Origin: an uncultured archaeon
GTDB taxonomy: Archaea; Thermoplasmatota; Penumbrarchaeia; JASLWR01
Reading direction: 5' to 3'
Length of the DNA stretch: 64,000 bases
NCBI GenBank assembly: GCA_964342815.1
Contig: CAYFHS010000002.1
Coordinates: 3,079-67,078 of the forward strand
In this document: piece after piece, positions 7,568-52,268 of the stretch
Position numbering within the stretch: position 1 is the first letter of the stretch
How the letters are laid out: every line of letters starts with the position of its first letter
The notes under the pieces: model-generated
Told to the model about the DNA's origin: nothing
The model's database searches: none
The model's input: the letters and a program-made list of their open reading frames with translations, nothing else
Position numbers and translations under genes: made by a program

Positions 7568-9298
7568 TCAGTCCCCCCGGGCTCTCTCTGTAGCCTTTTG
7601 ATCCACCTCGTAGGTCTCTGGGTTTACTATCACGCCGTAATCGTTCTTCGCACTTTCGAATGATATTATTCCGTTACGGACCTCTTCCGCCACTATTGCC
7701 GCCGGACGTTTCAGGGGGTTCCCGTAACCACCTCCGCCTCCCGCTCTCTGGGACCAGACGGTCCCCGCAGGAACGTTCTCCACCAGATCCTTCGATGTGG
7801 TCTTGTAGACCCTATCGTCGGGGTAGATAAGATTTATTTTGTTCAACGTGGAATTTTTCCCACCAAAAAGACCGAATGCGGGCTCTACGTCCCCGTCGCC
7901 GAAGGTCACTACCGTGGTATCGTCCGAGCCGATCATGAATTTCGTAATAATGCCCAGACCGCCGCGGTACTGGCCGGCTCCCGCCGAGTCCCGCCAGTAT
8001 TCGTGTTCCAGAAGTAAATGCGGGGTCTGCTGCTCGAACATCTCGTAGTCCTGGTCCAAAACCCCTCCGGAAGCGTCTATCATCCCTATATGATCGTAAC
8101 CGTCCACTCCCTTCGTTGCCCCGGAACCTCCTTTCAATCCCAGAAACACTATGTCCACGAACTTCGCGTCTTTCCTATGGTCCGTTCCCGTGGTCAGACC
8201 GCACAGAAGCTGGTTCCAGCCTGCGGTTATGCGCTCCGGTATCGCACTAGCAAGAGCCCTAATTATGGAATCCGCATTGGGTGGACAGAGATGATTTCCG
8301 AAGGTGGTGGCCTTTGGGTAAGCGGCATTCAGTATGGTACCTTCCGGAATAATGATCCTTATGGGCCGTACCATGCCGTCGTTATGCGGCATGTCCGGAT
8401 TCACCATCTGCAGGAATGTAAGAACCGTAGCAGAAGCGGAAGATGTGAACGTACCGTTGACAAAGCCGTTGGTTTGAGGATCCGTATTCGTGTAATCGAA
8501 AATTATTTCCTGGTCCTTCACCGTTATGTCCACCCTGATCTTGAAACGGGATCCGGGGTGCCTACCATCGTAATACACGTTTGCTTCCCCGTGATACTTC
8601 CCGTTGGGTATGGTCCTTATCTCGGCCCTCATCATCTTTTCCGTGGCCCGGAACAGATAATCCTTGTGCGACTCGAACACTTCGACGCCGTATTTCTCCA
8701 CGAGAGCGAGAATACCCCGCTCACCCACCACGCAGCTTCCGATCTCCGCCCTCATGTCCTCTGCCACTATATCGTAGCGTATGTTGGCGAAGATTAGATC
8801 CCACACGTCCTTCCGCAGCTTTCCCTTCTCGTAGACCTTCACGGGAGGTATCCTCAAAGCCTCCTGCCAGACCTCGGTGGCATTGGGATTGTAGCCGCCG
8901 GCAACATTGCCCCCTATATCAGCCTGATGACCCTTGCAGGCCGCCCAGGCAACTAATTTCTCTTTGTAGAAGATGGGTTTGTACACTGCCACATCGTTGT
9001 TCTGGTTTCCCATTGAAAATACATCGTTGTGGAATATCACGTCCCCGGGATATATCTCGTCGCCGTAGTACTTGAGTATATACTCGCATACCGGCCCCAG
9101 TGAGAATGACAGTATAGGAAGATTCTCGGTCTGTTCGAGCATCTTTCCATTTGCATCATACAGCCCCGTTACGAAATCCTTTGCCTCGCATAGGATGGGA
9201 GAGCGAGTTGTGCGCGCAAGGGCGATGCTCATTTCCTCGGTTATGGATTTGAACCTTCTCTGGAGGACGGAAACCAATATTTTGTCGATCTCGGTCAT
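7568..9298 (-). CDS. hyuB: Hydantoinase B / N-methylhydantoinase B / oxoprolinase (HyuB family)
   Basis: 576 aa with family-typical motifs ('ARTTRSPILCEAKDF', 'MGNQNNDVAVYKP', 'GGGGGYGNP'). Its start overlaps the hyuA stop by 4 nt (ATGA), implying translational coupling. Confidence 0.9.
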   Translation of the reverse strand: MTEIDKILVSVLQRRFKSITEEMSIALARTTRSPILCEAKDFVTGLYDANGKMLEQTENLPILSFSLGPVCEYILKYYGDEIYPGDVIFHNDVFSMGNQNNDVAVYKPIFYKEKLVAWAACKGHQADIGGNVAGGYNPNATEVWQEALRIPPVKVYEKGKLRKDVWDLIFANIRYDIVAEDMRAEIGSCVVGERGILALVEKYGVEVFESHKDYLFRATEKMMRAEIRTIPNGKYHGEANVYYDGRHPGSRFKIRVDITVKDQEIIFDYTNTDPQTNGFVNGTFTSSASATVLTFLQMVNPDMPHNDGMVRPIRIIIPEGTILNAAYPKATTFGNHLCPPNADSIIRALASAIPERITAGWNQLLCGLTTGTDHRKDAKFVDIVFLGLKGGSGATKGVDGYDHIGMIDASGGVLDQDYEMFEQQTPHLLLEHEYWRDSAGAGQYRGGLGIITKFMIGSDDTTVVTFGDGDVEPAFGLFGGKNSTLNKINLIYPDDRVYKTTSKDLVENVPAGTVWSQRAGGGGGYGNPLKRPAAIVAEEVRNGIISFESAKNDYGVIVNPETYEVDQKATERARGD

Positions 9299-11394
9299 TT
9301 GAACACCCTCCCCTTGAACTCTTTTTCGCGGTCCTTAAGGTACATGGTATAACTTCCGTAGCGGTCCGAGGCTACCCGATAATCAGGCGTTACAAAAGTG
9401 CTGGTGTTCACCTGTTCGATCATGGCAGGCCCATCCACAATATTTCCATGTCTGAGATTGAAGCCGTCATACACGTTGACCTTCCGGAACTTGCGTATTC
9501 CAGGGATATAAACTTCTCTCGTACCCTTCAATGCCTTCGCCGGGTCGCTGCCGTCGAACTCCTCTTCCAGGAACTTTGGCTTGTCGGTTCTTCCTATGCA
9601 TGACAACCTCATGTTGATGAGTTCCACGGGCGTTCCTTCCTCCTCCAGCGAATACCCATAGAGCCGGTTGTGTTCCGGATGAAATCCTGTTACCAATGAC
9701 CGCAAATCGCCCTTTTCCACCGCTTCCCTTGTCACAGGCACCGTTACCTCGTGATACTGTTTTACGTATCTGAGGTCCAGTGCGAATCGATATTCGATCA
9801 TCTCCGGCGGAATATGCTCATAGGCAAGCAATCGGTTACCCTCAGCTTCCATCTCACGGAACAATTCCTGGAATCGTTCGATGTCGATCTCATCGAAACT
9901 GGCCGCATAGGTCCGTACGAAATCATGCTTCAGATCGCTCATGAGCATTCCCGCCGCGCAGAAAATAGACGATTCTTTTGGTATTATTATCACGGGTATC
10001 TCCAGCTCGTGGGCGATCTCGCAGGCGTGGATCGGCCCGGCCCCTCCCGCAACCACCAGGGGGAACTCGCGTGGGTCGAAGCCCCGTTTTACGGAAACCT
10101 CCCGCACGCCTGAAGCCATATTGGAGTTAATAACAGAATACATTCCGGCGGCAGCTTCTTCCACACTGAGGCTCAGCTTGTCAGCTATCTGCTCTTTTAT
10201 CGCCGCCCTGGCCTTGTCGTAATTGAGTGGGATCTTGCCTCCAGCAAAGAAATCCTTGTCGAGATAACCCAGTATAAGATCAGCATCGGTACAAGCGGGG
10301 TGCTCACCTCCGCGATCATAACATACTGGCCCCGGAAGGGAGCCAGCGCTCTGGGGACCCATTCTGAGAAGTCCTCCCTCGTCGATCCACCCTATGCTTC
10401 CGCCTCCCGCACCTACGGTGACGATGCCCAGCATGGGCAGTGCCAGGCGCAGGCGGTTTATCTCTCCCTCGGTGGTAACGAGAGGAGTCCGGTTCCGGAT
10501 GAGAGCTGCATCGAAACTTGTACCGCCCATGTCCACGGTAATGCAGTCATCATAGCCTTGTATGGAAGTGTATGCGATTCCTGCGACAGGACCGGCGGCA
10601 GGCCCTGAAAGAAGCGTCACTGCGGCATTGTCCATTGCGATCTCAGGCGATATCACGCCGCCATTGGACTGCATAATAAGGAGAACGCCTGAAAAACCTA
10701 TATCGTCCAGTTTTGCAGTGAGACTCAATAAATAGCTTTTTAGAATAGGTCCGACATAGCTGTTGAGAACCGTGGTGCTGATCCTGTCATAGAACCTGAT
10801 GGATGGCAGAAGATCGGCGGAGACGGTGAGATATTTGCCAGGCATCTCTTTCCGTATGATCTCAGCAGCCTGCTCCTCGTGGGTCTTGTTGGCAAATGAG
10901 TTCATGAAACAGATGGCCACGGCTTCAACATTTTCCTGAATGAAGGTTTGCACGGCTTCGCGGACATCTTCCTCGTTGAGTTCTGTGATGACGTCGCCTC
11001 TGTAATCCAGCCTTCCCTCTATTGGCTGCCTGAGATAGCGGGGTACCAGGGGTTTGACGTTGGTGTATCGATTATTGTACTGCTCTTCGCGGATACCTCT
11101 CCGCATCTCGAGGGCATCGCGGAGGCCCTTGGTGGTAAGCAAACCTGTTTTCGCCCCGGTATAGGTCAGCACGGCGTTGGTAGTGACGGTGGTGCCGTGG
11201 ACTATTATATCGACCTCTTTTATGAAATCCTCAAGTGTCATATTTCTGGTGCAGGCCATCTCGCGCAGGCCATTTAAGAGGCCCACGGAAGGGTCCCGGG
11301 GCGTGGACAGTACCTTGTAGATACTGGATGTTCCGTCATTTTCGGCAAGAAGAAAGTCGGTAAATGTTCCGCCTACGTCAATTCCGATCTTCAT
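9295..11394 (-). CDS. hyuA: Hydantoinase A / oxoprolinase (HyuA family)
   Basis: Canonical N-terminus 'MKIGIDVGGTFTDFLL' when started at the ATG at 11394. The longest ORF extends to 11463, adding 23 non-conserved residues, so I prefer the internal start. Acetate/sugar-kinase fold motifs run throughout. Confidence 0.88.
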   Translation of the reverse strand: MKIGIDVGGTFTDFLLAENDGTSSIYKVLSTPRDPSVGLLNGLREMACTRNMTLEDFIKEVDIIVHGTTVTTNAVLTYTGAKTGLLTTKGLRDALEMRRGIREEQYNNRYTNVKPLVPRYLRQPIEGRLDYRGDVITELNEEDVREAVQTFIQENVEAVAICFMNSFANKTHEEQAAEIIRKEMPGKYLTVSADLLPSIRFYDRISTTVLNSYVGPILKSYLLSLTAKLDDIGFSGVLLIMQSNGGVISPEIAMDNAAVTLLSGPAAGPVAGIAYTSIQGYDDCITVDMGGTSFDAALIRNRTPLVTTEGEINRLRLALPMLGIVTVGAGGGSIGWIDEGGLLRMGPQSAGSLPGPVCYDRGGEHPACTDADLILGYLDKDFFAGGKIPLNYDKARAAIKEQIADKLSLSVEEAAAGMYSVINSNMASGVREVSVKRGFDPREFPLVVAGGAGPIHACEIAHELEIPVIIIPKESSIFCAAGMLMSDLKHDFVRTYAASFDEIDIERFQELFREMEAEGNRLLAYEHIPPEMIEYRFALDLRYVKQYHEVTVPVTREAVEKGDLRSLVTGFHPEHNRLYGYSLEEEGTPVELINMRLSCIGRTDKPKFLEEEFDGSDPAKALKGTREVYIPGIRKFRKVNVYDGFNLRHGNIVDGPAMIEQVNTSTFVTPDYRVASDRYGSYTMYLKDREKEFKGRVFK

Positions 11395-11540
11395 TGAAAT
11401 ATCCCCGTACCGTCTCAATAGTTCGATACTATTTAATTTATTGCTGAATTTTGTAGGGCTCATCCATTTGGGGTGGGATGATAACTCGATACAAAACGTG
11501 TTTTGGATTAAAATTTGGAGGGCCTGCGAGCTTCAAGCAA

Positions 11541-11618
11541 ACGCTGGCCCGATACAAAAAAATGAATATTAAAAACAAATAGGAGGGCTTGCCCTCTGTG
11601 TCGGCGGGTCGCCGACTA
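11541..11618. repeat. Copy 1 of a conserved intergenic element: 45-nt AT-rich core 'GGCCCGATACAAAAAAATGA(A/T)TATTAAAAACAAA(T/A)AGGAGGGC' followed by two GC-rich hairpins
   Basis: Seen directly. The core matches copy 2 at 16106 with 2 mismatches in 45 nt. It is followed by hairpin A (GAGGGC-TT-GCCCTC) and hairpin B (GTCGGCG-GGT-CGCCGAC). On the minus strand the hairpins are followed by a T-rich run. Confidence 0.55.
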
Positions 11619-11652
11619 TAGATATTATTTTCACCCTGTTGCTGTTATGAAC

Positions 11653-14600
11653 TCAATCTCCATCTGTAGATTGAGACGATTCCAGAATGGGTGAAGATCC
11701 CTGAACTTCACTTTCCGGTACTATTTCTGCTGGTTCACTCGGTATAGACGAATTATGTTCGTTCTCAACCACACTTGGAGGGATTTCCTCTTTGGGTGAC
11801 TCTTCTACCGATTCGGTTGGTTCAATAATTTCATCCCCTGTACTTTTTTCTTCGGGAGATACATAATCCTGACATCCTTCACACCAGAAACATTCGTACT
11901 CCGCATAATATTGGGCGAATTGGTCGCAGGTCGGGCAAATTAGGGATGGAACATCTAACATCCTTCTTTTCACAATTTTCGTTACTACCCTTCGTCGAAC
12001 AACCTTTCGGTGGGTTTCTCTAACCGGCGTAAGTGTTGCCGCTCTCTCCGCTTTATCCGTGGTTTCTGTATCAGGAACGAACAATATATTTTTACGCTTT
12101 CTTTTTATGATGATTAGAACAATTAATACTCCAACTATCAAGGCAAATATGATAAGTGGTATAGTGATCCAGAAAGGAAGTTGAGAACTGGTGGTTGCAC
12201 TTTGTTCAGAAGTATCATCGTCCGTGTCATCATCGTCATTTGGTAGCCAAGCAGCGATAACAACAATATTCAACGTATCTGCTGCATCATTTCCCTCCTT
12301 ATCCCTTACTTTTAGGTCGATGGTGTAGTTTCCGGGGATATTGAAAACAAACGATGGCTTTGGACCGTAAAGGAGTACATTGCTATTGTTATATAGGAAT
12401 GACCATGTATAGTTCATTATTCCGACATTATCCTTGCTTCCAGTTCCGGTAAGGACTACGACGTCTCCCTCGTCAATAGTTATGTCCTCACCTGCTATAG
12501 CAGTCGGAACCGTGCTGTCTCTGACGGTCACATTGAGATGATCGCTATGCCAGTTTCCCGCTGAATCGGTGATATTTAATATTATGTAGTACGTACCGGG
12601 TTCATCGAACGTAAAGCTCGGGGACGATCCGTAAAAGTTTTTCTCTATATCGTCGAAGATAATTGTCCAGGTGTGATTAATCACTAAAACGTTATCATAG
12701 GAACCACTGCCATTTAAGCTCACCAATTGCCCCTGGTCAATAACAATGTCATTACCGGCAACGGCGACCGGGGGAGTGATATCCCGTACCGTTATATTCA
12801 GAAAATCAGCAGCCCAATTTCCCTCTTTATCGCTTATATTCAACGTAATAGGGTATATTCCAGGTATATGGAACGTGAAATCTACAACTTTTCCTTTAAG
12901 CGTTTTCTCGATTCCGTTGTAAGTAAAATTCCATATAAATTCTTCGATATCAATATTATCGCTACTGTTTGTCCCGTTAAAGGTAACCTCCTGGTGCTGG
13001 TCTATGATAATATCCACGCCTACCTGCGCAACCGGGGATATAACGTCTGTGACTAATGCTTTGGTTTCAATAGTAATTAATTTATTACTAGCATCATCAC
13101 TAACGATGAAAGAATAATTGACAGAAATTGCATACATATCAACCTTGAAATTGCCTGACCATGTATCTCCGGAAATACGTGTCAAGTGCTCAGTTTCGTA
13201 ATTCTCACCGTCGAAGGTATAATTCACATCAACCACAGTAACACCGATATTATCCTTAACATTCACAGAGATATTGAATTTCTCCCCTGTTTTAGGTATA
13301 TCCGTTGTTTCATCCTCTATTAACCATGGGGCATCATTGTCGAGGACTACCTTCTGCGGCTTGCCTGTATTGAGTATATTCCCGGCTTTGTCTGAAATAT
13401 AAAATCGATATATTAGATGGATTGCATCAGAAGGAATGGTTATGGAGGTATTCCACAAACCTTCGTTGTCAAGGTTCATGATATCGCTTTGATAGCTAAT
13501 ACTATCGAAAGTATACCTAACCGACACGCTTGTCACACCGATGTTATCGCTGGCATCTAGCAGTATTGTGTATGGATCGCCGGTTGTTGGCAACCCTATT
13601 GTTTCTTCTCTTCCAAATATAGGTTTATCATTGTCCGAAATGGTTACTATTCCTGGGTTCATTGGATCGGTGGAATATGAGTTGCCAGAGATATCATAAA
13701 TTAAAAATCCATAGTATATCACAGTGGCATTGGGACGAACGGCACCGATGGTGAATTGCCAAGCATATTGTCCCAGGTAAGACATCGACGAAGTAAGTGG
13801 ATTCTCTCCGAAATCGTAAAACCAAATTACATATACCTTGGCTGGATCCAATCCAATATTGTCCGAAAAGTGTGTGGAGAATGTCAAAGGTTCGCCGGTT
13901 GTTCCCGTACTATCCGTATCGTCACTGATGATAAATGGGATATCGTTATCGACTACTGACAAGATATCCGATATGGTCTTATTTTGATTGTTAGACGTAT
14001 CATTTACCCAGAAGTAATATTCAAACGAGAAGGCATTATCTGGAATAACGATAGTAATTGACCACATATTTTCCGTATTGTTATTTACAGACCAGTTAAA
14101 ACTTTGACCCCGATTGATGATAAAATTGAACATTAATTGGTCGACACCTATGTTTTCTGTGATGTTGATGGTGAATAACGCAGAGTCACCAGTGGTTACT
14201 GTACTGTTCCATTTCGTTCCAAACAGAGGACGATCGTTATCCCTCACATTTACTGTCCGTTTATTATTTAATATATATTTTCCAGAATTATCTATAACGG
14301 AAACATTATAGGTCAGATTTCCCAGGTCATCATGAAGGAAGATTGAACCACACCAACGACTAATTCCAAAATAATTGGTTTCACTTAAATTAAGGTTTAT
14401 ATTTCCACTTGAATTACCATGTGACCACATAATTGTAACAGTTGAAATAGTGGCATCATTTAGAATAGACAGATTAAATTCAAAACGATCCCCTGTGGTT
14501 CCATTTGAGTTGGTATAATCATTAATGAGGATAGGATATTGATTACAACTACTGGAAATTTGCGAATAATTATCATGAGCACAGGCAGTACCAGGAATTG

Positions 14601-15741
14601 TATATGAGATATTCCAAACATAACCATTATTGTTAGAATTTGGATATCTTGTTAGGTAATCCGACCAATAATTCCCTTTGTCAAAACTATTATTCCATGT
14701 GTTGTTAAAACCATTATCTTTGGCCTGTACATTATTCCCATTATTATTTTTTAAAACGTTATGATGAACAGTATTGTTTTCCCACATTCTATCGTAAAAC
14801 TGAATCCCTACACCTGTATTATTATCAATAACATTTGAAAGAATTGAGCAATGATGGGAAATATAATTATTCCTGCGACAATTTATTCCAATATCGTTAT
14901 TATTACAATAGTTATTATAAATTAAAACCATTTCACAATGATTTTCAATTATTATTCCAGAGTTAGTATTATCCATACACCGATTATTTCTAATGATGGT
15001 TTTTTCTCCCGAATAGGAATAAATACCTCCTGCACCTATATTAGAATAACAAAAGTTATTCTCAATTAAATTACATTTCGACAGGGACTCACCGATACCT
15101 CCATTATAATCATTATTCCAACAAGTGTTATTTGATATTCGATTATAGTTAGACCAATGAAGGCGTATCCCTGTTTTTTCGTTTGAAAACACACGGTTGT
15201 TATCGACGACATTATATGATGATTCCGATAACTGGAAGCCCCCATCTAAATAGATACCAAAATAGTTATGGTGCACAACACAATTAGTAATGTTATTATA
15301 ATAAGATTTTATATCAATGCCTGCATCGCGATCCGGAAGATATTGAGAACCACTATTGGTAATGTTAAAACCAGTCAAATTGACCCAATTCGCTGTAATT
15401 AGCACAACATCACCATTACCTTCAGCATCAATGATAGTATCAGACCCCCCATTGCCAATAAGTGTTAGCGTTTTATTAATCAGCACATTCTCATTATAAG
15501 TTCCCGCCCATACGTGAATTGTATCACCAGCATGAGAAGCATTTACTGCATCTTGTATTGTAGTGAAATCTTGCCCACCATCATCGTCAACAATGATGGG
15601 ATTTCCCCGAGTTCCCGACATATGAGTATCAACATGTTCTATTTTCTTGGTGGCCAAACTCTCTTTATCATATGGCATTAGGAATCCCATTGAACCCGTA
15701 AGCAGCAATGCGATCGTTACCAATACTATTATCTTTCTCAA
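11653..15741 (-). CDS. Giant surface protein: signal peptide, right-handed beta-helix (NosD/pectate-lyase-like) domain, at least five Ig-like repeats, three PKD domains, poly-Asp, TM anchor, cytoplasmic four-Cys zinc-ribbon tail
   Basis: 1362 aa. 'DDDGGQDFTTIQDAVNASHAGDTIHVWAGTYNE..LTLIGNG' is a classic parallel beta-helix start. PKD units of the type 'VAVAGNDIVIDQGQLVSLNGSGSYDN..WTI'. TM 'FWITIPLIIFALIVGVLIVLIII' (12106-12174) is followed by KRKRK. Tail 'CPTCDQFAQYYAEYECFWCEGCQDYV' at 11860-11939. Confidence 0.85.
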   Translation of the reverse strand: MRKIIVLVTIALLLTGSMGFLMPYDKESLATKKIEHVDTHMSGTRGNPIIVDDDGGQDFTTIQDAVNASHAGDTIHVWAGTYNENVLINKTLTLIGNGGSDTIIDAEGNGDVVLITANWVNLTGFNITNSGSQYLPDRDAGIDIKSYYNNITNCVVHHNYFGIYLDGGFQLSESSYNVVDNNRVFSNEKTGIRLHWSNYNRISNNTCWNNDYNGGIGESLSKCNLIENNFCYSNIGAGGIYSYSGEKTIIRNNRCMDNTNSGIIIENHCEMVLIYNNYCNNNDIGINCRRNNYISHHCSILSNVIDNNTGVGIQFYDRMWENNTVHHNVLKNNNGNNVQAKDNGFNNTWNNSFDKGNYWSDYLTRYPNSNNNGYVWNISYTIPGTACAHDNYSQISSSCNQYPILINDYTNSNGTTGDRFEFNLSILNDATISTVTIMWSHGNSSGNINLNLSETNYFGISRWCGSIFLHDDLGNLTYNVSVIDNSGKYILNNKRTVNVRDNDRPLFGTKWNSTVTTGDSALFTINITENIGVDQLMFNFIINRGQSFNWSVNNNTENMWSITIVIPDNAFSFEYYFWVNDTSNNQNKTISDILSVVDNDIPFIISDDTDSTGTTGEPLTFSTHFSDNIGLDPAKVYVIWFYDFGENPLTSSMSYLGQYAWQFTIGAVRPNATVIYYGFLIYDISGNSYSTDPMNPGIVTISDNDKPIFGREETIGLPTTGDPYTILLDASDNIGVTSVSVRYTFDSISYQSDIMNLDNEGLWNTSITIPSDAIHLIYRFYISDKAGNILNTGKPQKVVLDNDAPWLIEDETTDIPKTGEKFNISVNVKDNIGVTVVDVNYTFDGENYETEHLTRISGDTWSGNFKVDMYAISVNYSFIVSDDASNKLITIETKALVTDVISPVAQVGVDIIIDQHQEVTFNGTNSSDNIDIEEFIWNFTYNGIEKTLKGKVVDFTFHIPGIYPITLNISDKEGNWAADFLNITVRDITPPVAVAGNDIVIDQGQLVSLNGSGSYDNVLVINHTWTIIFDDIEKNFYGSSPSFTFDEPGTYYIILNITDSAGNWHSDHLNVTVRDSTVPTAIAGEDITIDEGDVVVLTGTGSKDNVGIMNYTWSFLYNNSNVLLYGPKPSFVFNIPGNYTIDLKVRDKEGNDAADTLNIVVIAAWLPNDDDDTDDDTSEQSATTSSQLPFWITIPLIIFALIVGVLIVLIIIKRKRKNILFVPDTETTDKAERAATLTPVRETHRKVVRRRVVTKIVKRRMLDVPSLICPTCDQFAQYYAEYECFWCEGCQDYVSPEEKSTGDEIIEPTESVEESPKEEIPPSVVENEHNSSIPSEPAEIVPESEVQGSSPILESSQSTDGD

Positions 15742-16105
15742 GGTCCATACCTTCTGGAGTTATTGGAAAATGCTGTCTTTTAACTAATTCGTATAATAAT
15801 AATAATACTTCCCCCTTAAATAACTTTTTATCTTTAACTTACTCTCAAATTCGCTCTTCATCTCTGCTTAATAAAGGTCTTTTAGCAAACTCATCATTTC
15901 CAAACTTTGATGCCGTTTTCATTCCATTATTTTGCATAACGGTTCAGGTATATCTGAAGTCGTCGCAGGGGGATTTGGGCGAAGCCGGATACGCAATGTT
16001 ATTTCAGCTAATGAACAACCTAGATTTGCCTACTGTCGTTCCATTAAATTAAAGAGACTCTACGAAACAAGTTTCGTCTGTACCTGTAGGAAACAGTATG
16101 TTTCC

Positions 16106-16187
16106 GAGGGCGCAGGCCCGATACAAAAAAATGATTATTAAAAACAAAAAGGAGGGCGGTCCGCCTTCATGGTCGGTGGTTTGCCGA
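16106..16187. repeat. Copy 2 of the conserved intergenic element (AT-rich core plus two hairpins)
   Basis: Same 45-nt core as at 11541. Hairpins differ in sequence but keep their pairing (GGCGG-TC-CGCC; GGTCGG-TGGTTTG-CCGACC), which is compensatory change. Confidence 0.55.
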
Positions 16188-16400
16188 CCAGAATCGAGAA
16201 ACATATCATTCTGGTAGCTTCGAAGAAGAACATCGCAAGGGGGAAAGTATCGAGGGACAACACAGGCAGATAAATAGATGTCATTCTCCAGGGTTTAATC
16301 AAGCAATTTTCAACAAACTAAAGATTTTCTAAAAAACATGGTGAGATAGAAAGTTATAAAAATGTAAAAAATGTCTAATAACGAATACTGGTGAGTATAC

Positions 16401-19400
16401 ATGTATCCAAAAAACACTGTTACCATAACGTTGATTCTAATGCTCGTTTGTAACGCGGTGTTCGCCATGACAACTTCAAATATTTTCGAAAAAAAGACTG
16501 TGTGTAATGGAACCTCCGATCGTGTGGAGAGTTATGGTGAAATCCTGAGTACAAGGTTTGCAGGGGGTGATGGATCGGTGGGAAATCCATACCAGATATC
16601 AAATGTGACACATCTTCAGAACATGAATACGAACGAAAGTGCTCACTATGTTCTCATCAATGACATCAACGCAACGGAGACGGCAAGCTGGAACAACGGT
16701 GATGGGTTCGACCCAGTAGGAAATAATGTGAATAGATTCACAGGAAGTCTGGACGGAAAAGGCTATAAAATATACTATCTCACCATCAACCGTCCTTCTG
16801 AAGACAATACTGGTCGGTTCAGGTTTATAGAAGGGAGTGTTTCCAATTTAACTCTAATAGGGAATAACATTCTAGGAAACTACTATGTCGGTGGATTGGC
16901 GGGATCCATATACTCGGGTAGTATTAACAATTCGTTCAGTACAGGGAACGTGAGCGGTTATTCCTATATCGGTGGGCTTGTTGGATATAGCTACCGCGGC
17001 ATCGTGGATAACAGCTATATAACCGGTAACGTGAATGGAAGCAGTTTCATCGGCGGTCTCGTCGGTTCCAACAACGGCATCGTGAAGAACAGCTACGTAA
17101 CCGGTAACTTGAGCGGGATAGGTTCTCGTATCGGCGGTCTCGTCGGACGTAACCGCTATGGCTCCGTGGAGAACTGCCACGCGATTGGTAACGTTAGCGG
17201 AGATGAGGATATCGGCGGTCTCGTTGGACAAAACTATTACGGCTCTGTAGAGAACTCCTATGCCACCAGCAACGTGAGCGGGAACAAGAATGTTGGCGGT
17301 CTCGTTGGGTCCAGCGACCATGGCTTCGTGGAGAACTCCTTCTATTGTATCAATTACACGATAGTAAACGGAAAAAACCTTCTTGCACCATATGGTATAT
17401 ACATGAAACAATTTGACGATTGGATCGGTGACGGCAAGACCATCGACATCGATGATCACATGCAACAGATACCCGGAAAAAATTACTATAAAATTTCAAG
17501 TATAGCCGACATAAAGACTATGCTTTCCTTTACAAAAGATAACCATAAGTTCAGACAGACCGCCAATATAGATTTATCCTTGGAACCTGGCTTATACATA
17601 CCTGTTTTCTCTGCTGGGGAATACGATGGAAACGGGTTCCTGATCTCGAACATGAATTTGTCGATCAATTATAATGACCGCATAGGACTTTTTGGTATGG
17701 TTGGTAGTAATACACAGATATCAAATGTTTCTTTGATCGATGTCGACATAACCGGTAACGACTATGTCGGCGCTCTCGTCGGTTACAACTACGGCTCAGT
17801 GTCAGACAGCTATGCAACTGGCAGCGGGAGGGGTAACGACTATATCGGCGGTCTCGTCGGATACCACGTCGAAGGCTCCGTGGAGAACAGCTACGCAGCC
17901 GGCAGCGTGGGCGGGAACGACCGTGTTGGTGGTCTTGTGGGAGACAACCACGACGGCTCCGTGGAGAACAGCTACGCAACTGGCAGCGTGAGTGGGAAAG
18001 ACCAGATTGGTGGGCTCATTGGAAAGAACGGCGGCTCTGTTAAGAACTGCTATGCAACCGACAACGTGAGCGGGAACGATCGTGTTGGTGGGCTCATTGG
18101 AAAGAACGGCGGCTCCGTCAAGAACAGCTACACAACCGGCAACGTGAGCGGGGAAGACCAGATAGGTGGGCTCGTGGGAATTAACGATGAGGGCGCGGTG
18201 ATGAACTGCAATGCCACCGGAAACGTCAACGGTAGAGGTGATAATGTAGGTGGGCTCGTGGGAGGGAATAACTACGGTATCGTAGAGGAGAGTAGTGCAA
18301 TTGGGGCAGTTAATGGCAATATAAGTATAGGTGGTCTCGTGGGAATTAATTACGGCAAGGTAGAGAACTGCTTTGCTACCGGTGCAGTTAGCGGTAGTAT
18401 AAAAATAGGTGGACTAATTGGATATAACGGGGGAAAAGCTGTGAAATGTTACGCCTCAGGCAGTGTTAGTGGGATTGGTAGTAAAATTGGAGGGTTTGTA
18501 GGGGAAAACCGAAACGGCGAGGTGTTCAGATGCTACGCAACTGGTAGTGTGTCTGGAGATCATGAAATTGGGGGACTCGTAGGATTCAACCGAAATAGCA
18601 AGGTGCTTGGCTGCTACTCTATAGGCCGTGTCATTGGGGAGTCTGAACTTGGCGGTCTTATTGGAGAAAACAGAGATGGTACCGTCTTAGCCTCCTTCTG
18701 GGATAACCAAACTTCGGGACAGTCCACAAGCTACGGAGGTACAGGAATGAACACGACTCGGATGATGACCAAGAAAATCTTTATGGATGCCTACTGGGAT
18801 TTTGTTTCCATCTGGAATATTATAGAAAGTTCATCATATCCTTATCTACGTTCATTTGATTACCTGAATATTATAACATCTAATGACGAGGTTACCTATG
18901 AGGATAATATTTACCGCATGGATTATGATGCCATTTCTCTAGTACCGGGAAATCCTCCACTTTCATGGCATCTATCTACAAATGCTAGTGAATGGCTCAA
19001 GATCGATAAGGATGGGGTTCTTGAGGGAATACCGTTAAACGACGATGTGGGAACATACTGGGTGAAGGTCTCAGCAGTACATAATGCGGATACTTTAGAT
19101 TTCACAAACTTTACTCTTACAGTTAACAATACGAATGATGCTCCCGAGATAATAACAGCTCCAACAAAGGTGATCTACGAAGATAGTCCCTTTTTTTCAG
19201 ATTACAGCGCGATAGATGTCGATCCCACATTTGATGAATTATACTGGTTTTTTGAGTCCAACGCACCCTTTTTAATATTCAATAATTCAACAGGAAATCT
19301 ATCGGGGACGCCAGCCAATTCCGATGTGGGTCTCTGGTGGGTGAACATCTCCGTGGAGGATGGAAAGGGCGGGAACGAGTTCAAGAATTATACCCTTACT

Positions 19401-20681
19401 GTGATCAATACGAATGACGCCCCAGGGATAACGACAACTCCGATTGTTACGTCCAACGAAGACAACCTATATTATTTGGATTGTGATGCCATAGATATCG
19501 ATCCGACGTCTGATGAACTACTTTGGTCGTTCGAATCCAATGCTTCCTTTTTAACGATTAATTCTTCAACGGGCAACCTATCTGGAATCCCGACCAACTC
19601 AGATGTAGGCACTTGGTGGGTACATGTTACAGTTGAGGATGGAAACAATGGAACGGATTCGATAAATTATACACTCTCGGTGATCAACACGAATGATGCC
19701 CCAGAGGTCAATTCCACTCAATCGCGTGTGAAGTTTGATGAGGATACAGCATGGTATGGAATTAATCTAAATGATGTATTCAGGGATATAGATGGCGATG
19801 AACTGGATTTTTCCAATGAACGGAATGACAACATTACCATCGAAATATGCCCCAATTCAACTGTTCTGTTCACACCTCAAAAGGACTGGTGTGGTACAGA
19901 AAAGATATTATTTTTTGCGAACGATTCGAAAGAAGGGATATCCACTAACATCATAATCACCGTAACTCCCATCAATGATGCTCCCACCAATGCCTCTATA
20001 AGGCTGGAGAATTTTAATTATTATGAAGGCAGAACCCAGCCTGCATATGCTAATGCTACGGATGTGGATTTACCATTCGGTGATAATCTACAGTTTTTAT
20101 GGACCTTTAACAGTTCCAACAAAAGTCTAACAGGAAATAGTGTAAATCTATCTCTCCTAGCCGGGAATCATACTGTCACACTTGTTGTTTCGGATTTAGA
20201 AGGCTTCTCCATAAACATTAGTATGGCAATCACAATCCTTGAGGACCCTTTACTCAATGATATAGATACCCCTGATGGGCCGGACAGTAACGAAACAGGA
20301 GATAAAGAAAGCAGTTCGAGTAATATATTTTATTTAGGCATCGGCGGTGCAATACTCGTTATCGTCATAGCAGTAATAATATTAATGTTCTTAAGGAAAC
20401 GATCCCTAAAAAATGGAGAACAAAAGAAATCCTCGCCATCAGATAGTAAAGAAGAGCCAGTTCAACTAGAAAAAGGACAAGACATTTCTTGGTCGGAAGA
20501 CTATGAAATCGACATAACTAATCAATCTCTTTCTACTGAAGAACCAACCTTTTCAAAGGAATTGACCTCCGCATCACCGCCTCCTCCACCGCAATCTTCG
20601 TTTGAGAGCAACCTTGAGCGGGAAAATGAACAAGAGATAATAATGGAACCACCACCCCCACCACCTCCACCGGATAAATAG
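16401..20681 (+). CDS. Giant surface protein with about 20 GLUG-type repeats (IGGLVG...NSYATGNVSG), four or five cadherin-like/'putative Ig' domains, TM anchor, Pro-rich cytoplasmic tail
   Basis: 1426 aa. Signal peptide 'VTITLILMLVCNAVFA'. 26-aa repeat consensus 'xGNDxIGGLVGxNxGSVENSYATGNVSG' in two blocks (aa 158-312 and 452-765), resembling the GLUG motif of IgA1-protease-type proteins. Repeated modules '...NTNDAP...' with 'DVGTYWV' motifs are cadherin-like. TM 'GAILVIVIAVIILMFL'. Tail ends 'PPPPPPPPDK'. TATA-like 'GTTATAAAAATG' about 40 nt upstream and 'GGTGA' before the ATG. Confidence 0.85.
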   Translation: MYPKNTVTITLILMLVCNAVFAMTTSNIFEKKTVCNGTSDRVESYGEILSTRFAGGDGSVGNPYQISNVTHLQNMNTNESAHYVLINDINATETASWNNGDGFDPVGNNVNRFTGSLDGKGYKIYYLTINRPSEDNTGRFRFIEGSVSNLTLIGNNILGNYYVGGLAGSIYSGSINNSFSTGNVSGYSYIGGLVGYSYRGIVDNSYITGNVNGSSFIGGLVGSNNGIVKNSYVTGNLSGIGSRIGGLVGRNRYGSVENCHAIGNVSGDEDIGGLVGQNYYGSVENSYATSNVSGNKNVGGLVGSSDHGFVENSFYCINYTIVNGKNLLAPYGIYMKQFDDWIGDGKTIDIDDHMQQIPGKNYYKISSIADIKTMLSFTKDNHKFRQTANIDLSLEPGLYIPVFSAGEYDGNGFLISNMNLSINYNDRIGLFGMVGSNTQISNVSLIDVDITGNDYVGALVGYNYGSVSDSYATGSGRGNDYIGGLVGYHVEGSVENSYAAGSVGGNDRVGGLVGDNHDGSVENSYATGSVSGKDQIGGLIGKNGGSVKNCYATDNVSGNDRVGGLIGKNGGSVKNSYTTGNVSGEDQIGGLVGINDEGAVMNCNATGNVNGRGDNVGGLVGGNNYGIVEESSAIGAVNGNISIGGLVGINYGKVENCFATGAVSGSIKIGGLIGYNGGKAVKCYASGSVSGIGSKIGGFVGENRNGEVFRCYATGSVSGDHEIGGLVGFNRNSKVLGCYSIGRVIGESELGGLIGENRDGTVLASFWDNQTSGQSTSYGGTGMNTTRMMTKKIFMDAYWDFVSIWNIIESSSYPYLRSFDYLNIITSNDEVTYEDNIYRMDYDAISLVPGNPPLSWHLSTNASEWLKIDKDGVLEGIPLNDDVGTYWVKVSAVHNADTLDFTNFTLTVNNTNDAPEIITAPTKVIYEDSPFFSDYSAIDVDPTFDELYWFFESNAPFLIFNNSTGNLSGTPANSDVGLWWVNISVEDGKGGNEFKNYTLTVINTNDAPGITTTPIVTSNEDNLYYLDCDAIDIDPTSDELLWSFESNASFLTINSSTGNLSGIPTNSDVGTWWVHVTVEDGNNGTDSINYTLSVINTNDAPEVNSTQSRVKFDEDTAWYGINLNDVFRDIDGDELDFSNERNDNITIEICPNSTVLFTPQKDWCGTEKILFFANDSKEGISTNIIITVTPINDAPTNASIRLENFNYYEGRTQPAYANATDVDLPFGDNLQFLWTFNSSNKSLTGNSVNLSLLAGNHTVTLVVSDLEGFSINISMAITILEDPLLNDIDTPDGPDSNETGDKESSSSNIFYLGIGGAILVIVIAVIILMFLRKRSLKNGEQKKSSPSDSKEEPVQLEKGQDISWSEDYEIDITNQSLSTEEPTFSKELTSASPPPPPQSSFESNLERENEQEIIMEPPPPPPPPDK
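16872..18695 (+). repeat. Intragenic tandem repeat array (78-nt / 26-aa GLUG-type units, interrupted at 17337-17753), including near-identical adjacent units at 18009-18059 and 18087-18137
   Basis: Seen directly: two adjacent units share 'GGTGGGCTCATTGGAAAGAACGGCGGCTC(T/C)GT(T/C)AAGAAC', about 90% nucleotide identity. Confidence 0.8.
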
Positions 20682-21377: not shown

Positions 21378-21423
21378 GGGCTACCCCATACATTCGAATT
21401 ATTAAAAATCTTTTTACCGTCAT

Positions 21424-22952: not shown

Positions 22953-24059
22953 ATGGCCGATGTCAAGTCAGTTTTGATAATCTTAGTTCTCATCGTCCTC
23001 GTGGGATCGGTCTTGGTTGTTGTATACAGAAATATTAAAAAGGACGAAGAAATGCTCAACAAGGTTTACGATATAAAACCTTATGCAGGACCGGACATGG
23101 AGGTGGTGGTGGGCGAGAAGGTCACCTTCGTCGGCCGCAATTATGCGGACTCTTCGAAATATCCTGATGTTCTTTATAAGTGGGATTTTGGAGATGAGGA
23201 GAGACCATGGGAGCGAAATGTTCTCGATACTGTAACACACACGTATGATTCGTCGGGTGAATACATCGCGCGCTTCACCATAACCGTGATAAGCAGCAGT
23301 GGGGGACAGAGCAAAAGCGATATTATCAACATCACAGTTCTTAAAAAAAGCCAGAAGAACACGGCACCCGTTGCCACCTTCACAGTCTCTTCAAACAGCG
23401 CAGCAGTTGGTGAAACTATTCATTTTTCGGCTGTGGAGAGCAGCGACGCGGAGGACGGCAACAACCTTGAGTTCTCATGGGACCTGGACAACGACGGTCT
23501 GGAGGACGGGGACCAGAGGGAAATATTCTTTAACTATTCCTTTGTGGGCGAGTATCTGGCCACTCTCATTGTCACCGACAGCGGTGGCAAGATGGACGAC
23601 CACAGCGAAAACATCCACATATCCGAGAGGGAACGACCCGACAAGATCGAGGTAGAGCTTGATAACGGCGGCGCAGGGGAGATTGAGGCAAACACACCGA
23701 TATCCGATTCAAATTTTATTTTTAATTGGGACCTGACCGCAGAGCTTGCCGAAGACATTAAAAAAATTGAAGTCGTTCTGGAATGGGATGATATCTCTTG
23801 GGACCTGGATGTTTCCACGGGCAAGGGCGCGGGCAGCGGCAGTGGGGATATACTGGCGGAAGACACCGACGGCAGCGAGGGGACTGGAGAAGGCAATGTA
23901 GTTCTGGAGCTGGACGATAGCGGTGAGCTGGCCTACGATGTGGATGAAGGATGGTTCGTTGAGATCAGCACCAAGGAAAGCGTGCTGACAGCAGGGGGGA
24001 ATAAAAATTTAAATGACCAGTGCGAATTTACCGTGACGGTCATTATTTGGTACGTATAA
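22953..24059 (+). CDS. Membrane-anchored protein with two PKD domains and an acidic C-terminal region
   Basis: N-terminal TM 'VLIILVLIVLVGSVLVVVY'. PKD-like 'YAGPDMEVVVGEKVTF...YKWDFGD' and 'VATFTVSSNSAAVGETIHFSAVESSDAEDG..LEFSWDLDNDG'. Confidence 0.65.
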   Translation: MADVKSVLIILVLIVLVGSVLVVVYRNIKKDEEMLNKVYDIKPYAGPDMEVVVGEKVTFVGRNYADSSKYPDVLYKWDFGDEERPWERNVLDTVTHTYDSSGEYIARFTITVISSSGGQSKSDIINITVLKKSQKNTAPVATFTVSSNSAAVGETIHFSAVESSDAEDGNNLEFSWDLDNDGLEDGDQREIFFNYSFVGEYLATLIVTDSGGKMDDHSENIHISERERPDKIEVELDNGGAGEIEANTPISDSNFIFNWDLTAELAEDIKKIEVVLEWDDISWDLDVSTGKGAGSGSGDILAEDTDGSEGTGEGNVVLELDDSGELAYDVDEGWFVEISTKESVLTAGGNKNLNDQCEFTVTVIIWYV

Positions 24060-24062
24060 TTC

Positions 24063-35787: not shown

Positions 35788-35867
35788 GGTGCTACGAATG
35801 GACATATCCGGATACGTTCGAAACCTCTGTTTATAGAGGATGGGTGTGGCCAATTTTTCTTCACTAA

Positions 35868-35882
35868 AAGTTTATATAATGT
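35868..35882 (+). promoter_or_regulatory. TATA-like box (AAAGTTTATATAATG) about 70 nt upstream of the 35952 start
   Basis: AT-rich TATA-like element. 'AGGTGG' SD at 35941-35946 precedes the ATG. Motif only, no functional data. Confidence 0.3.
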
Positions 35883-35951
35883 TTATACAATAGATAACAT
35901 TCAACAATCTTGCGAAGAGATTGATGAGTAATCAATTTCAAAGGTGGGTTC

Positions 35952-38039: not shown

Positions 38040-38056
38040 AATTTTCAAAAACCTCA
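38036..38056. terminator. Candidate bidirectional T-rich terminator between convergent genes (14-bp spacer)
   Basis: 'TTTTAAAATTTTCAAAAACC' gives T-runs on both strands, directly after the stops of the convergent 35952..38039 (+) and 38054..41461 (-) genes. Archaeal terminators are oligo-T. Inference only. Confidence 0.3.
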
Positions 38057-41461: not shown

Positions 41462-41564
41462 GTAATAACACTGTCCGTAGAAACCTTTTATGATAATGCA
41501 AGTATAAATAAATATCCAGCAATATGAATAAATGTATAATCCCGAATTACTTTGACCCTAAAAA

Positions 41565-42341: not shown

Positions 42342-42765
42342 GTCGGGGGATGAGGTGAACAGGTTAATAAATTTTTTTTAGACTACACTAAAACTTGCGT
42401 ATGACGTTTTCGCAACGCAGAAACCGTCTTCGATTATATACACGGAGCATCGTTAGATTATCCGATTGCGGCGGAGAGCATATCAAGAAGTTCGAGGCAG
42501 ACCAGTATCCTTCTACTAATCACGACGACTGGGCCATTGCGAAGATATACTTTTCCATAGCAAAGAAGTTGGGAAGAAAATTGAGATATTCGTTGGATAT
42601 TTCAATAATTCCAGCGTTCCTAATGTCAAGAAATGAGATGATTCCTTGAACCTGTTATCGGGATTCAACTTCCAGAAGACGGATGAGTCGAAAGACCTCG
42701 CTAGGGCAATATAGGGATAAAAGAATATGAAGGGGAATGTTAAAAGGATCGAAGTTTTTGTGCTA

Positions 42766-42778
42766 ATAATTATATATA
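42766..42778 (+). promoter_or_regulatory. TATA box (AATTATATATAAT) about 35-45 nt upstream of the 42811 start, suggesting a leaderless or short-leader transcript
   Basis: Strong AT-rich TATA-like motif. No SD before the ATG. Confidence 0.35.
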
Positions 42779-42810
42779 ATCCAAAACTAATGTAGACATA
42801 ATCGTAGGAG

Positions 42811-48927: not shown

Positions 48928-49241
48928 GTTATTCGGTATGGCATAATATCGTTATAATAATTTCTCATGGAGCTACGTATATTACGCATAACACCCGATA
49001 CATTTCTAAACTTTGCTAGGGGCCCGGATCAGCGATGATGCGTCCCCGGTTAAGATCTTGGTGAACATTGAGCCAGCGATGAGAAAGGCAGAGGGAAACT
49101 TGGCAGTGTGAAGGAAAGACTTCCGCGGATTGTTTTGTTTTTTGTTTGTCTTGTCCGGTATACTGAAATAAGATTTTAAATAAAAGTAATATTATTTTCA
49201 TACTTATTTATAAATAATATAGGGCGATTTTATCTGCAAAT

Positions 49242-51273: not shown

Positions 51274-51287
51274 AAGGACGCAGTACA

Positions 51288-52241: not shown

Positions 52242-52268
52242 CATAATAACGAAATATATGGGATACTT

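Follow-up and report, generated by a model that had tools for sequence, protein, structure and literature searches.

In the 64,000-nt stretch of DNA analysed here (the window), which comes from an uncultured marine Thermoplasmatota archaeon, a short intergenic sequence, further referred to as element E, is present in two copies of the same orientation. With moderate confidence, E is regarded as a promoter/operator module with upstream palindromes that has been reused before a divergent allele of a surface-protein gene. According to this proposal, E would be cis-regulatory DNA acting as an archaeal promoter that fires on the minus strand of the window, with the hp2 and hp1 palindromes followed, in the upstream to downstream order, by a TATA box (TTTTTAATAWTC), a T7 spacer and the TGTATCGGG-CCNGYG block. 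The latter block probably carries a repressor or initiation site, and transcription would start about 6 nt past the motif. E would be a component of the control region upstream of the hyuA operon and, at the same time, mark the constant border of a hypervariable island containing surface-protein and toxin–antitoxin genes. In the window strain, the second copy would stand before a divergent, low-GC allele of the surface-protein gene of this island. Because this copy is located upstream of the surface-protein gene, both genes are preceded by the same putative promoter module, with unrelated leaders.

Structure of the two copies of element E

The two copies form a direct repeat, with 45 of 47 bases identical between positions 11542-11588 and 16111-16157 of the window. 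Each of the 20-22-nt halves of the repeat occurs exactly twice in the 64 kb, against 0.00-0.02 occurrences expected from shuffled sequences, and the same arrangement is present in independent assemblies (L001-L003), so it is not an assembly artefact. When the comparison included hairpin hp2 and was extended through GGGCC, 63 of 75 bases (84%) were shared. An earlier note on this DNA had described a 45-nt core repeat; the repeat does exist, but its start coordinates had been placed 1 to 10 nt off.

The core of copy 1 (E-c1, 11542..11588, minus strand) reads on the minus strand CCTCC-TATTTG-TTTTTAATATTC-ATTTTTT-TGTATCGGG-CCAGCG, with a TATA-like box at 11565-11575, a T7 run at 11556-11562 and TGTATCGGG at 11548-11556, and its transcription start is predicted at about 11541-11543. 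Copy 1 is placed 152 nt upstream of the true ATG (at 11394) of hyuA, encoding hydantoinase A (9295..11394, minus strand), the first gene of the hyuA-hyuB-CoA-transferase operon located downstream of this copy. The core of copy 2 (E-c2, 16111..16157, minus strand) has a TATA-like box at 16134-16144, TGTATCGGG at 16117-16125 and a predicted start at about 16110-16112. It is positioned 370 nt upstream of TTG 15741 of the surface-protein gene enclosed by both copies (11653..15741, minus strand), whose product contains NosD/beta-helix and PKD repeats, a transmembrane segment and a zinc-ribbon tail. Relative to the start codons, copy 1 extends from -152 to -225 and copy 2 from -370 to -448. Both distances, as well as the 35 nt by which the end of hp2 of copy 1 lies past the stop at 11653 of the surface-protein gene, agree with those reported previously.

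A degenerate, partial third copy of promoter-like appearance (copy 0; 11487..11527, minus strand), with the sequence GCCCTCC-AAATTTTAATCC-N11-TGTATCGAG, is present in the window and in the sister strain L039 and is missing from the sister strains L119 and L137 due to a 36-nt indel. The proximal hyuA promoter (GCAATAAATTAAATAG; 11429..11445, minus strand) is kept in all relatives, even in those lacking E. Variants of hyuA of 722 aa were also encountered, i.e., the window ORF from 11463 and P0244.

Two GC hairpins adjoin each repeat copy, as the earlier note had observed. In copy 1, hp1 (11583..11596; GAGGGC-TT-GCCCTC) overlaps the end of the core repeat with its 5' arm, and hp2 (11600..11616) has the form GTCGG-N7-CCGAC. 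The corresponding hairpins of copy 2 are GAGGGCG-GTC-CGCCTTC (hp1, 16152..16168) and GGTCGG-N7-CCGACC (hp2, 16171..16189), and the N7 spacing of hp2 is constant in most copies. The stem arms GTCGG/CCGAC and GAGGGC/GCCCTC are identical in copies 1 and 2, and the differences between the hairpins of the copies are loop changes, single mismatches or wobble pairs. Among four independent alleles, 10 of 14 stem pairs are invariant and one pair is changed on both sides, and the covariation score was equalled in 380 of 500 shuffles. The claim that the pairing had been kept by compensatory changes was therefore not borne out, and covariation, being no better than in shuffles, does not provide evidence for a selected structure. 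The downstream GGGCC..GGCCC stem is invariant and also shows no covariation.

These data bear on the possibility that E is a structured non-coding RNA or a cis-regulatory leader RNA, with the hairpins or the downstream stem as the functional unit, which is judged highly improbable. On the plus strand, the 91-nt windows gave somewhat more stable folds than shuffled sequences did (z = -2.8 and -2.4), and the minus-strand folds were no different from shuffled ones (z = -1.1 and -1.6). Similarly, the first 35 nt past the predicted start site are identical in L119 and L137 despite the 58% identity of neutral sites, but the leader of copy 1 diverged from the sister strains at the neutral rate. No relevant Rfam match at an E-value of at most 1 was obtained for the 9-19 kb part of the window or for the L121, L119 and L039 loci, and the regions that would be transcribed downstream of copies 1 and 2 are unrelated; nothing was found that would speak for the shared regulatory RNA considered previously. 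A C/D-box sRNA was rejected as well, as proper C and D boxes are absent on reading the sequence. Coding candidates were also discarded: plus-strand ORFs running through the core are interrupted in copy 1 by a stop codon and in L119 by an indel of 1 nt, and a leaderless small ORF behind a plus-strand promoter (MVGGLPT..., 16169-16273) has its ATG, located between the hairpins, replaced by TAG in L137, is 15 codons long in L119 and is frameshifted in copy 1.

Sister strains and the hypervariable island

Three sister-strain types, in which hyuA is 85-87% identical to that of the window at the nucleotide level, possess a single E per locus (L039/L129-136, L119/120/139 and L137/138). In all of them, E is located 124-151 nt upstream of hyuA and oriented toward it, and the second copy is found only in the window strain. 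The neighbour on the other side of E varies among the sister types and is a WD40 gene, a PIN toxin–antitoxin pair or another toxin–antitoxin pair. Since E is single and hyuA-linked while the opposite neighbour changes, it travels with hyuA. The comparison with related genomes proposed in the earlier note thus identified E as a conserved single-copy sequence upstream of hyuA, and the suggested small repeat family was not supported in the DNA analysed, with two copies in 64 kb of the window and one copy per sister-strain locus.

The core is 84-95% identical between strains (about 0.9) vs 55-63% (0.58) at the four-fold sites of hyuA; it is far better kept than neutral sites and hence under selection. 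The block TTCATTTTTTTGTATCGGGCC shows 0-1 change per strain, with P of about 3e-4 for 20/21 at a neutral identity of 0.6. The 84% identity of copies 1 and 2 is comparable with that of the E copies of different strains (81-86%).

The E site is the edge of a hypervariable island. Between the 225-aa gene and hyuA, gene content is different in every strain type, and the island genes encode giant PKD, NosD or FG-GAP surface proteins and toxin–antitoxin pairs. The surface-protein gene of the window has a GC3 of 0.354, the lowest among 34 genes. Its 3' third is allelic to the 1528-aa gene of L137, and its 5' two-thirds are strain-specific, with no close homologue found for this part (the next best match had 36% identity over 26% of the protein). 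Lacking a close homologue, the gene was rejected as a portable cassette occurring with the same flanks elsewhere. The 84-nt flank of copy 2 including hp2 (16167..16249) is orthologous to DNA beside E in the sister strains, which indicates that the outer side of copy 2 is resident DNA.

Such an arrangement could be a recombination scar or an attachment-like site. The direct repeats of 47-75 nt would then be hybrid sites, formed when circular or foreign DNA with the surface-protein gene integrated at E through Campbell-type homologous or site-specific recombination, and the sister strains with one E would represent 'empty' sites. This scenario is consistent with the lowest GC3 of the enclosed gene, with the absence of close homologues over its 5' two-thirds, with the two internal core mismatches, which fit a single crossover, and with the location of the sister-orthologous parts in the outer flank of copy 2 and the inner flank of copy 1. 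Related modules are also touched by two further indels: in the L039 type, hp2 and hp1 are separated by an inserted 792-aa gene, and L121 has a 382-nt insertion accompanied by a direct repeat of 15 nt. Nevertheless, a scar is considered rather unlikely. Pfam scans of 33 window proteins (the 1995-aa ORF at 29800-35787 was left out) did not reveal an integrase, a transposase or a recombinase. The divergence between the two copies equals that between alleles of different strains, which argues against a recent duplication of one site and against fresh target-site footprints, and the three indels are accompanied by repeats of 6, 15 and 47 nt, i.e., the target duplication is not fixed. The segment is not a clean cassette, since its gene has, in the 3' third, an allelic counterpart in an island gene of L137, and the purifying selection on the core in one-copy strains would be left unexplained. 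As there are no tRNA genes in the window, E is not a tRNA-linked attachment site. The cassette footprints postulated in the earlier note found support in the existence of strains without the second copy and in the strain-specific 5' two-thirds of the gene, but they do not agree with the divergence of the copies and the lack of a recombinase. For the second copy, the most likely origin is a recombination event involving island alleles from related strains, rather than transposition.

The spreading of E in intergenic DNA as a small mobile or REP-like palindromic element (MITE-, Correia- or BIME-like) with an outward promoter was also taken into account and is very unlikely. The GTCGG-N7-CCGAC palindrome, often together with GAGGG..CCCTC, recurs between genes in L040, in three places of L121, in L128 and in the E clade, in either orientation, and among 139 loci it is almost confined to these archaea. 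One of the L121 copies lies inside the 382-nt insertion flanked by the 15-nt direct repeat. A 28-nt leader hairpin is common to this insertion and copy 2: the GGAAACAGTATGTTTCC hairpin with its flank (16088..16115), placed directly downstream of the predicted start site of copy 2, shares 26 of 28 bases with the analogous position in the L121 module upstream of hyuA. Spreading would be hard to reconcile with two copies per 64-kb window and one per 22-kb sister locus, with the absence of terminal inverted repeats, a consistent target duplication and a transposase, and with the limitation of the core to one clade and one orthologous site. No related copy was detected in database scans with strict patterns, by which diverged copies would be missed: there were 0 matches in one genome per GTDB species, 35 matches in JGI metagenomes, all of them unrelated Shine-Dalgarno leaders of gut bacteria, and 0 matches and 3 chance matches in high-GC contigs in two IMG/VR scans.

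A more speculative version, which we regard as improbable, is that E and its relatives constitute a small promoter-bearing element moving or copied within marine Thermoplasmatota genomes and providing a preferred entry point for new surface-protein genes. Such a module would comprise the hairpin pair, the TATA box, a motif of the GTATCGGG or GTAATCGAGG type and then the leader hairpin, and, with no recombinase known for it, would correspond in archaea to mobile promoters or Correia-like elements. Pointing in this direction are the 382-nt insertion in L121, the shared 28-nt leader hairpin and the fact that genes were inserted at E twice independently in sister strains.

Layout and direction of the putative promoter

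The preferred reading of E as a reused promoter/operator module is suggested by the layout of a TATA box and TGTATCGGG on the minus strand, which is common to E and two other gene-proximal promoters in the window. E reads TTTTTAATAATC-ATTTTTT-TGTATCGGG-CCTGCG. The 225-aa gene is preceded by AAAAAGA-TTTTTAATAATTC-GAA-TGTATCGGG-TAGCGT-ATG, a sequence conserved in three sister strains, with the promoter TTTTTAATAATTC-GAA-TGTATGGGG at 21384..21408 (minus strand), 6 nt before the ATG. The third promoter with the motif is that of the 121-aa gene, which is preceded by TTTAGAAA-TGTATCGGG-TGTT-ATG, with TGTATCGGG at 48994..49002 (minus strand), 4 nt before the ATG. The TATA-like boxes of copy 2 (TTTTTAATAATC) and copy 1 (TTTTTAATATTC) match the type of TTTTTAATAATTC, which is located 21 nt before the ATG of the 225-aa gene, and both copies face their genes, hyuA and the surface-protein gene, in the sense orientation. 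Exact TGTATCGGG sites were found three times in 128 kb of strand, all in the sense orientation and all upstream of genes. The number of TGTATSGGG sites was weakly above chance (5 vs 1.37 expected), five sites being reached in 1 of 100 shuffles. A general promoter-proximal role of TGTATCGGG was rejected, as it was found in only 2 of 34 gene-proximal regions. A PadR/wHTH-like protein, a possible candidate regulator, is encoded at 47314-47964.

Copies 1 and 2 cease to be similar 6 nt past the motif, at 11542 and 16111, and have unrelated sequences from there on. This is the place where the analogy with the other promoters puts +1, and it was counted in favour of the promoter reading. The related modules of L121 show the same order of hairpins, TATA box, about 7 nt and GTAATCGAGG, and one of them has a good BRE-plus-TATA (AGAAAATTTATATT) in the same direction. 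With the layout of two other promoters and the end of the repeat at the predicted start, a TATA-containing minus-strand promoter module, one of the options named in the earlier note, is the best supported reading of E.

Some features were counted against it. An A-rich BRE was not found on the expected side of the TATA box of E, where the minus-strand flank is CCTCCTWTTTG, unlike in most window promoters, and the A-rich tract of E lies on the opposite side. Moreover, hyuA and the surface-protein gene are each preceded by a proximal TATA-like box of their own, so that transcripts from E would carry leaders of 150 nt and 370 nt, which would be unusual where many genes of the genome look leaderless.

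The A7 tract, similar to the A-rich BRE of promoters in this genome, is positioned upstream of the TATA box when the plus strand is read, which would suit a plus-strand promoter of the variable divergent neighbour (the GLUG gene here, toxin–antitoxin or WD40 genes in the sisters), with hp2 as a 5' stem-loop. Most G-U wobbles of hp2 and hp1 are in favour of an RNA from the plus strand, and a gene is present downstream in that direction at copy 2 and in L119, L137 and L039, but not at copy 1. However, these downstream genes are mutually unrelated and have their own proximal TATA boxes, and E is invariably linked to hyuA. In addition, positions -20 to -1, where the DNA must melt, would be taken up by the GC-rich hp1, and the TATA-plus-TGTATCGGG layout in the two gene-proximal promoters faces the opposite way. 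A plus-strand promoter is thus considered doubtful at best.

E could also be a terminator module, in which the GC hairpins with the T5/T7 tracts end the minus-strand transcript of the upstream gene and the AT-rich core serves as the U-tract region. Archaeal termination depends on U-tracts (PMC8716108), and in L121 and L128, convergent genes are separated by GTCGG-N7-CCGAC hairpins with T-runs after them. A GC hairpin with a U-tract after a co-directional gene is found at copy 1, which begins 35 nt after the surface-protein stop and where a scan flagged hp1 with CTATTTGTTT as terminator-like. No co-directional upstream gene is present at copy 2 or at the L119, L137 and L039 copies, which have a divergent neighbour, and the core is equally conserved there. 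The best-conserved block, TGTATCGGGCC, is not a U-tract, and terminator-like matches in the region are at the background level (6 found vs 4.4 expected). Termination, which the earlier note had also put forward, is plausible for copy 1 but not for the other copies, and as the general function of E it is unlikely. Within the promoter reading, the hairpins and the T5 and T7 tracts of copy 1 may double as the terminator of the surface-protein gene.

If true, the preferred reading would make E a clear example of a promoter reused by an uncultured archaeon, with a module that is under strong purifying selection before a metabolic operon placed also before a strain-specific surface-protein gene. A newly acquired or fast-changing surface gene would in this way be coupled to an existing regulatory input. 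To our knowledge, nothing is known experimentally about the promoters and gene boundaries in marine Thermoplasmatota MAGs, and the candidate operator/initiation motif TGTATCGGG together with the lineage-specific palindrome GTCGG-N7-CCGAC could aid their annotation. E does not open a new class of system.

Comparison with known systems

Integron attC sites, which occur also in archaeal integrons (PMC9668308), resemble E in that hairpin-forming E closes the 3' end of a segment that holds one gene and differs between strains. Unlike attC, the E region has neither an array nor an integrase among the 33 proteins scanned (outside the 1995-aa ORF), and no R''/R' core sites (RYYYAAC / GTTRRRY) were seen on reading E. 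Instead of one long imperfect hairpin, as in attC, E possesses two short near-perfect stems (5-8 bp) and an AT-rich core.

Bacterial REP/BIME and Correia-type elements sometimes supply promoter or terminator signals. They share with E the short intergenic GC palindromes with conserved arms in either orientation, whereas E has a very low copy number in the DNA seen and no terminal inverted repeats, target duplication or RAYT-type transposase.

Flexible or replacement islands for cell-surface proteins are described in aquatic prokaryotes, e.g., the cell-wall island of Haloquadratum (PMC4535781), with homologous recombination at island flanks (PMC4033161). As in these islands, gene content between the 225-aa gene and hyuA differs per strain type and the conserved flanks can anchor recombination. 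The difference is that here the conserved flank element itself is duplicated inside the island.

Putative mobile promoters were surveyed at positions -150 to -50 from the start codon as sequences of at least 50 nt and at least 80% identity with non-homologous up- and downstream coding sequences, and most of their families have only two members (Matus-Garcia et al., NAR 2012, PMC3488235). E likewise represents similar DNA before two non-homologous genes of one genome, with 63/75 bases shared (84%; core 45/47). The downstream genes, hyuA and that of the NosD/PKD protein, belong to different Pfam families, and for the products of the upstream genes, the PKD and GLUG proteins, the best BLASTP E-value was 0.01 over 41 aa. 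E differs from the surveyed promoters in its positions (-152 to -225 and -370 to -448), in its host, an uncultured archaeon, and in having one copy at an orthologous site and the other inside a flexible island.

In archaeal BRE/TATA promoters, the TATA box is located about 22-27 nt upstream of the start site, and a repressor operator can be placed between the two. E deviates from them by the lack of an A-rich BRE on the expected side, and its operator and start site are putative. Its likeness to such promoters with an operator consists in a TATA box of the type used in this genome, followed by a conserved 9-mer at the position where a repressor would sit, an arrangement found in at least three promoters.

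The repeat and its counterparts in sister strains

A direct repeat of 47 nt was located in the window at 11542-11588 and 16111-16157, with 45 of the 47 bases identical, and each half of its AT-rich core occurred exactly twice in 64 kb, relative to 0.00-0.02 occurrences expected from dinucleotide shuffles. Two GC hairpins adjoin the high-coordinate side of each copy of this element (E), hp1 at 11583-11596 and hp2 at 11600-11616 in copy 1, and hp1 at 16152-16168 and hp2 at 16171-16189 in copy 2. A degenerate third unit was found at 11487-11527. The coordinates in the earlier note were a few bases off. The distances it gave hold: copy 1 lies 35 nt beyond the stop codon, at 11653, of the surface-protein gene (11653..15741, minus strand) and 152 nt ahead of the hyuA ATG at 11394, a start supported by exact protein matches from other contigs, and copy 2 lies 370 nt ahead of TTG 15741. 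The two-copy layout was also seen in independent assemblies (L001-L003).

The source, an uncultured marine Thermoplasmatota archaeon, occurs in samples from Tara and from oxygen-minimum zones; the closest genome record is ETNP2_MAG_1, whose hyuA protein is 94% identical. Searching from hyuA homologues and their cluster members yielded three more strain types (L039/L129-136, L119/120/139 and L137/138). All four types were about equidistant, with hyuA nucleotide identity of 85-87% and identity of 0.55-0.63 at 4-fold degenerate sites. Blastn and alignment revealed exactly one E in every sister type, 124-151 nt upstream of hyuA, two copies being present only in the window among the four types, and a core profile scan found no further copies in the window or in the loci of nine relatives.

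The DNA from a conserved 225-aa gene to hyuA was different in every strain type. It encodes giant GLUG and NosD/PKD surface proteins in the window, a remnant surface gene, a toxin-antitoxin pair and a 792-aa WD40 gene in the L039 type, only a PIN toxin-antitoxin pair in the L119 type, and toxin-antitoxin genes with a 1528-aa FG-GAP/PKD protein in the L137 type. Because of the single E upstream of hyuA in each sister type and the variable intervening DNA, E forms the constant boundary, on the hyuA side, of a flexible island. The slot beside E holds differing toxin-antitoxin pairs (PIN; zinc-finger/AbrB-like) in the sister strains (L119:1081-1663, L137:8860-9552, L039:4440-5045) and the GLUG gene in the window.

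Conservation of the element and form of its hairpins

Copy 1 and copy 2 shared 84% identity over the full E (about 75 nt), 74% over the hairpin part and 35/37 core positions, the corresponding values between strains being 81-86%, 75-81% and 32-34/37. The divergence of the two copies equals that of E alleles from different strains, so a fresh duplication is rejected as the source of the second copy. Either this copy is old and both have been maintained, or recombination brought the two together from different strains. Core conservation far exceeded the neutral level of 0.58, and the block TTCATTTTTTTGTATCGGGCC carried 0-1 change per strain (P ~3e-4). The first 35 nt past the inferred start site were identical in L119 and L137 (L119:1835-1870, L137:9882-9917) and nearly so in L039; in the window (11500-11541, minus strand) they had diverged to about 62%, the neutral level.

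Integration of the Campbell type could have left the two copies as a scar. This fits the flank pattern, since the outer flank of copy 2 (16167-16249) and the inner flank of copy 1 (leader and proximal hyuA promoter) are orthologous to the sister strains, and the two core mismatches are also consistent with it, but no recombinase was found among 33 proteins of the window and selection on single copies is left unexplained.

The claim that hairpin pairing was kept through compensatory changes failed: the stem arms have the same sequences, and the differences lie in the loops. Across four independent alleles, 10 of 14 stem pairs were invariant, one showed a double change (C-G, C·A, U-A), and no covariation above chance was found, the score being reached by 380 of 500 shuffles. 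A downstream stem, GGGCCGG/CCGGCCC, was likewise invariant. With an Rfam search also giving no match, E was rejected as a structured RNA family. It was likewise rejected as an attC site and, from the loci scanned, as a widespread repeat. No conserved ORF was found through or beside E. In hp2, the GTCGG-N7-CCGAC spacing is fixed in most copies, a feature that suits a palindrome bound by a protein better than a generic terminator stem. Copy 1, through its hairpins together with the T5 and T7 tracts, probably serves as terminator of the surface-protein gene as well (for U-tract termination, see PMC8716108), but a terminator role cannot account for the conservation of E where a co-directional upstream gene is absent.

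A candidate minus-strand promoter

Typical window promoters have an A-rich tract and TTTAWAT about 20-35 nt ahead of the start codon. A TATA box followed by TGTATCGGG is common to three sites: the 225-aa gene (AAAAAGA-TTTTTAATAATTC-GAA-TGTATCGGG-TAGCGT-ATG, kept in three sister strains), a 121-aa gene (TTTAGAAA-TGTATCGGG-TGTT-ATG) and E (TTTTTAATAATC-ATTTTTT-TGTATCGGG-CCTGCG). Exact TGTATCGGG occurs at three sites in the window, all in sense orientation and upstream of genes. On the minus strand, the motif lies at the 225-aa gene in the form TGTATGGGG (21384-21408), at the 121-aa gene (48994-49002) and in both copies of E (11548-11556 and 16117-16125). In the 225-aa and 121-aa genes, which are small and otherwise unrelated, TGTATCGGG sits between the TATA-like box and the start codon. 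The motif may be the operator of a small regulon.

By analogy with these two gene-proximal promoters, E would initiate minus-strand transcription some 6 nt past TGTATCGGG, at ~11542 and ~16111. The similarity of the two copies stops exactly at these positions, so that the duplicated unit would begin with the upstream palindromes and extend as far as the putative +1; the sequence beyond, transcribed in this reading, is unrelated between copies. The constant linkage of E to hyuA despite differing divergent neighbours points the same way. Two features weaken the promoter reading. An A-rich BRE is absent on the expected side of E. In addition, each downstream gene has a proximal TATA-like box of its own, which would make E a distal promoter whose transcripts carry long leaders. 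E is a real, selected, low-copy cis-regulatory module; the leading reading, a reused promoter or operator, is held with slightly better than even confidence.

Possible mobility and the flexible surface-protein island

That E is a mobile promoter or insertion hot spot appears unlikely, and is kept alive by modules and an insertion in L121, a more distant relative with 82% hyuA protein identity, and by a gene insertion in the L039 type. L121 carries three modules of one plan, in which the hairpin pair, its order inverted, is followed by a TATA-like box, GTAATCGAGG and finally a stem. One sits upstream of hyuA in a non-coding 382-nt insertion (L121:9552-9933 vs L123:6152-6166) that has a 15-nt direct repeat, AACATACACAAA(A)TA.., on either side. 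Inside it are the hairpin pair, the TATA-like box and about 130 nt of structured sequence that CGAGGCCCG/CGGGCCTCG close. A 28-nt leader hairpin is common to this module and the DNA beside copy 2. The other two lie between convergent genes (L121:6060-6170, plus strand; L121:15060-15195, minus strand), with a conserved inverted repeat TAATCGAGGCC...GGCCTCGATTA around the loop motif TATGGCTTTATTGC and no Rfam match. In the L039 type, hp2 and hp1 are split precisely by an insertion, the 792-aa WD40/beta-propeller gene, which is bordered on each side by AGAACG (L039:5232-7800 = L130:7134-9808, vs L137:9764-9836, the uninterrupted form), and a different small hairpin, TTCTGC-TGTC-GCAGAA, replaces hp2 next to hp1. 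More distant Thermoplasmatota also carry intergenic GTCGG(C)-loop-(G)CCGAC hairpins, paired with another GC hairpin (L040:7722-7765, L128:13870-13930); in a set of 139 loci the N7 form was nearly restricted to these archaea.

The surface-protein gene that the two copies bracket is a divergent allele of the one in the island, its product sharing 44% identity with the L137 protein over 920 aa. Its 3' third shares 77% nucleotide identity with the L137 gene, no close homologue was found for the 5' two-thirds, and its GC3 of 0.354 is the lowest of 34 genes. Gene callers place the start at ATG 15678 (1341 aa); the true start is probably TTG 15741, which extends the protein by a typical signal peptide, MRKIIVLVTIALLLTGSMG. 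At least 10 large secreted/surface proteins (PKD, NosD/beta-helix, FG-GAP, GLUG, Ig-like, DOMON) are encoded within the 64 kb (1268-4222, 11653-20681, 22953-27635, 29800-45771, 54073-56943, 61143-62945), several with a C-terminal transmembrane segment and zinc-ribbon tail. Three tandem paralogous zinc-type alcohol dehydrogenase genes (repeat family D3) and then a flavodoxin-like gene occupy 50296-53195.

The island bordered by E is of the same kind as the flexible islands described for aquatic prokaryotes (PMC4535781, PMC4033161). E itself comes nearest, among published concepts, to the 'putative mobile promoter' (PMC3488235), here placed within a flexible island of surface-protein genes.
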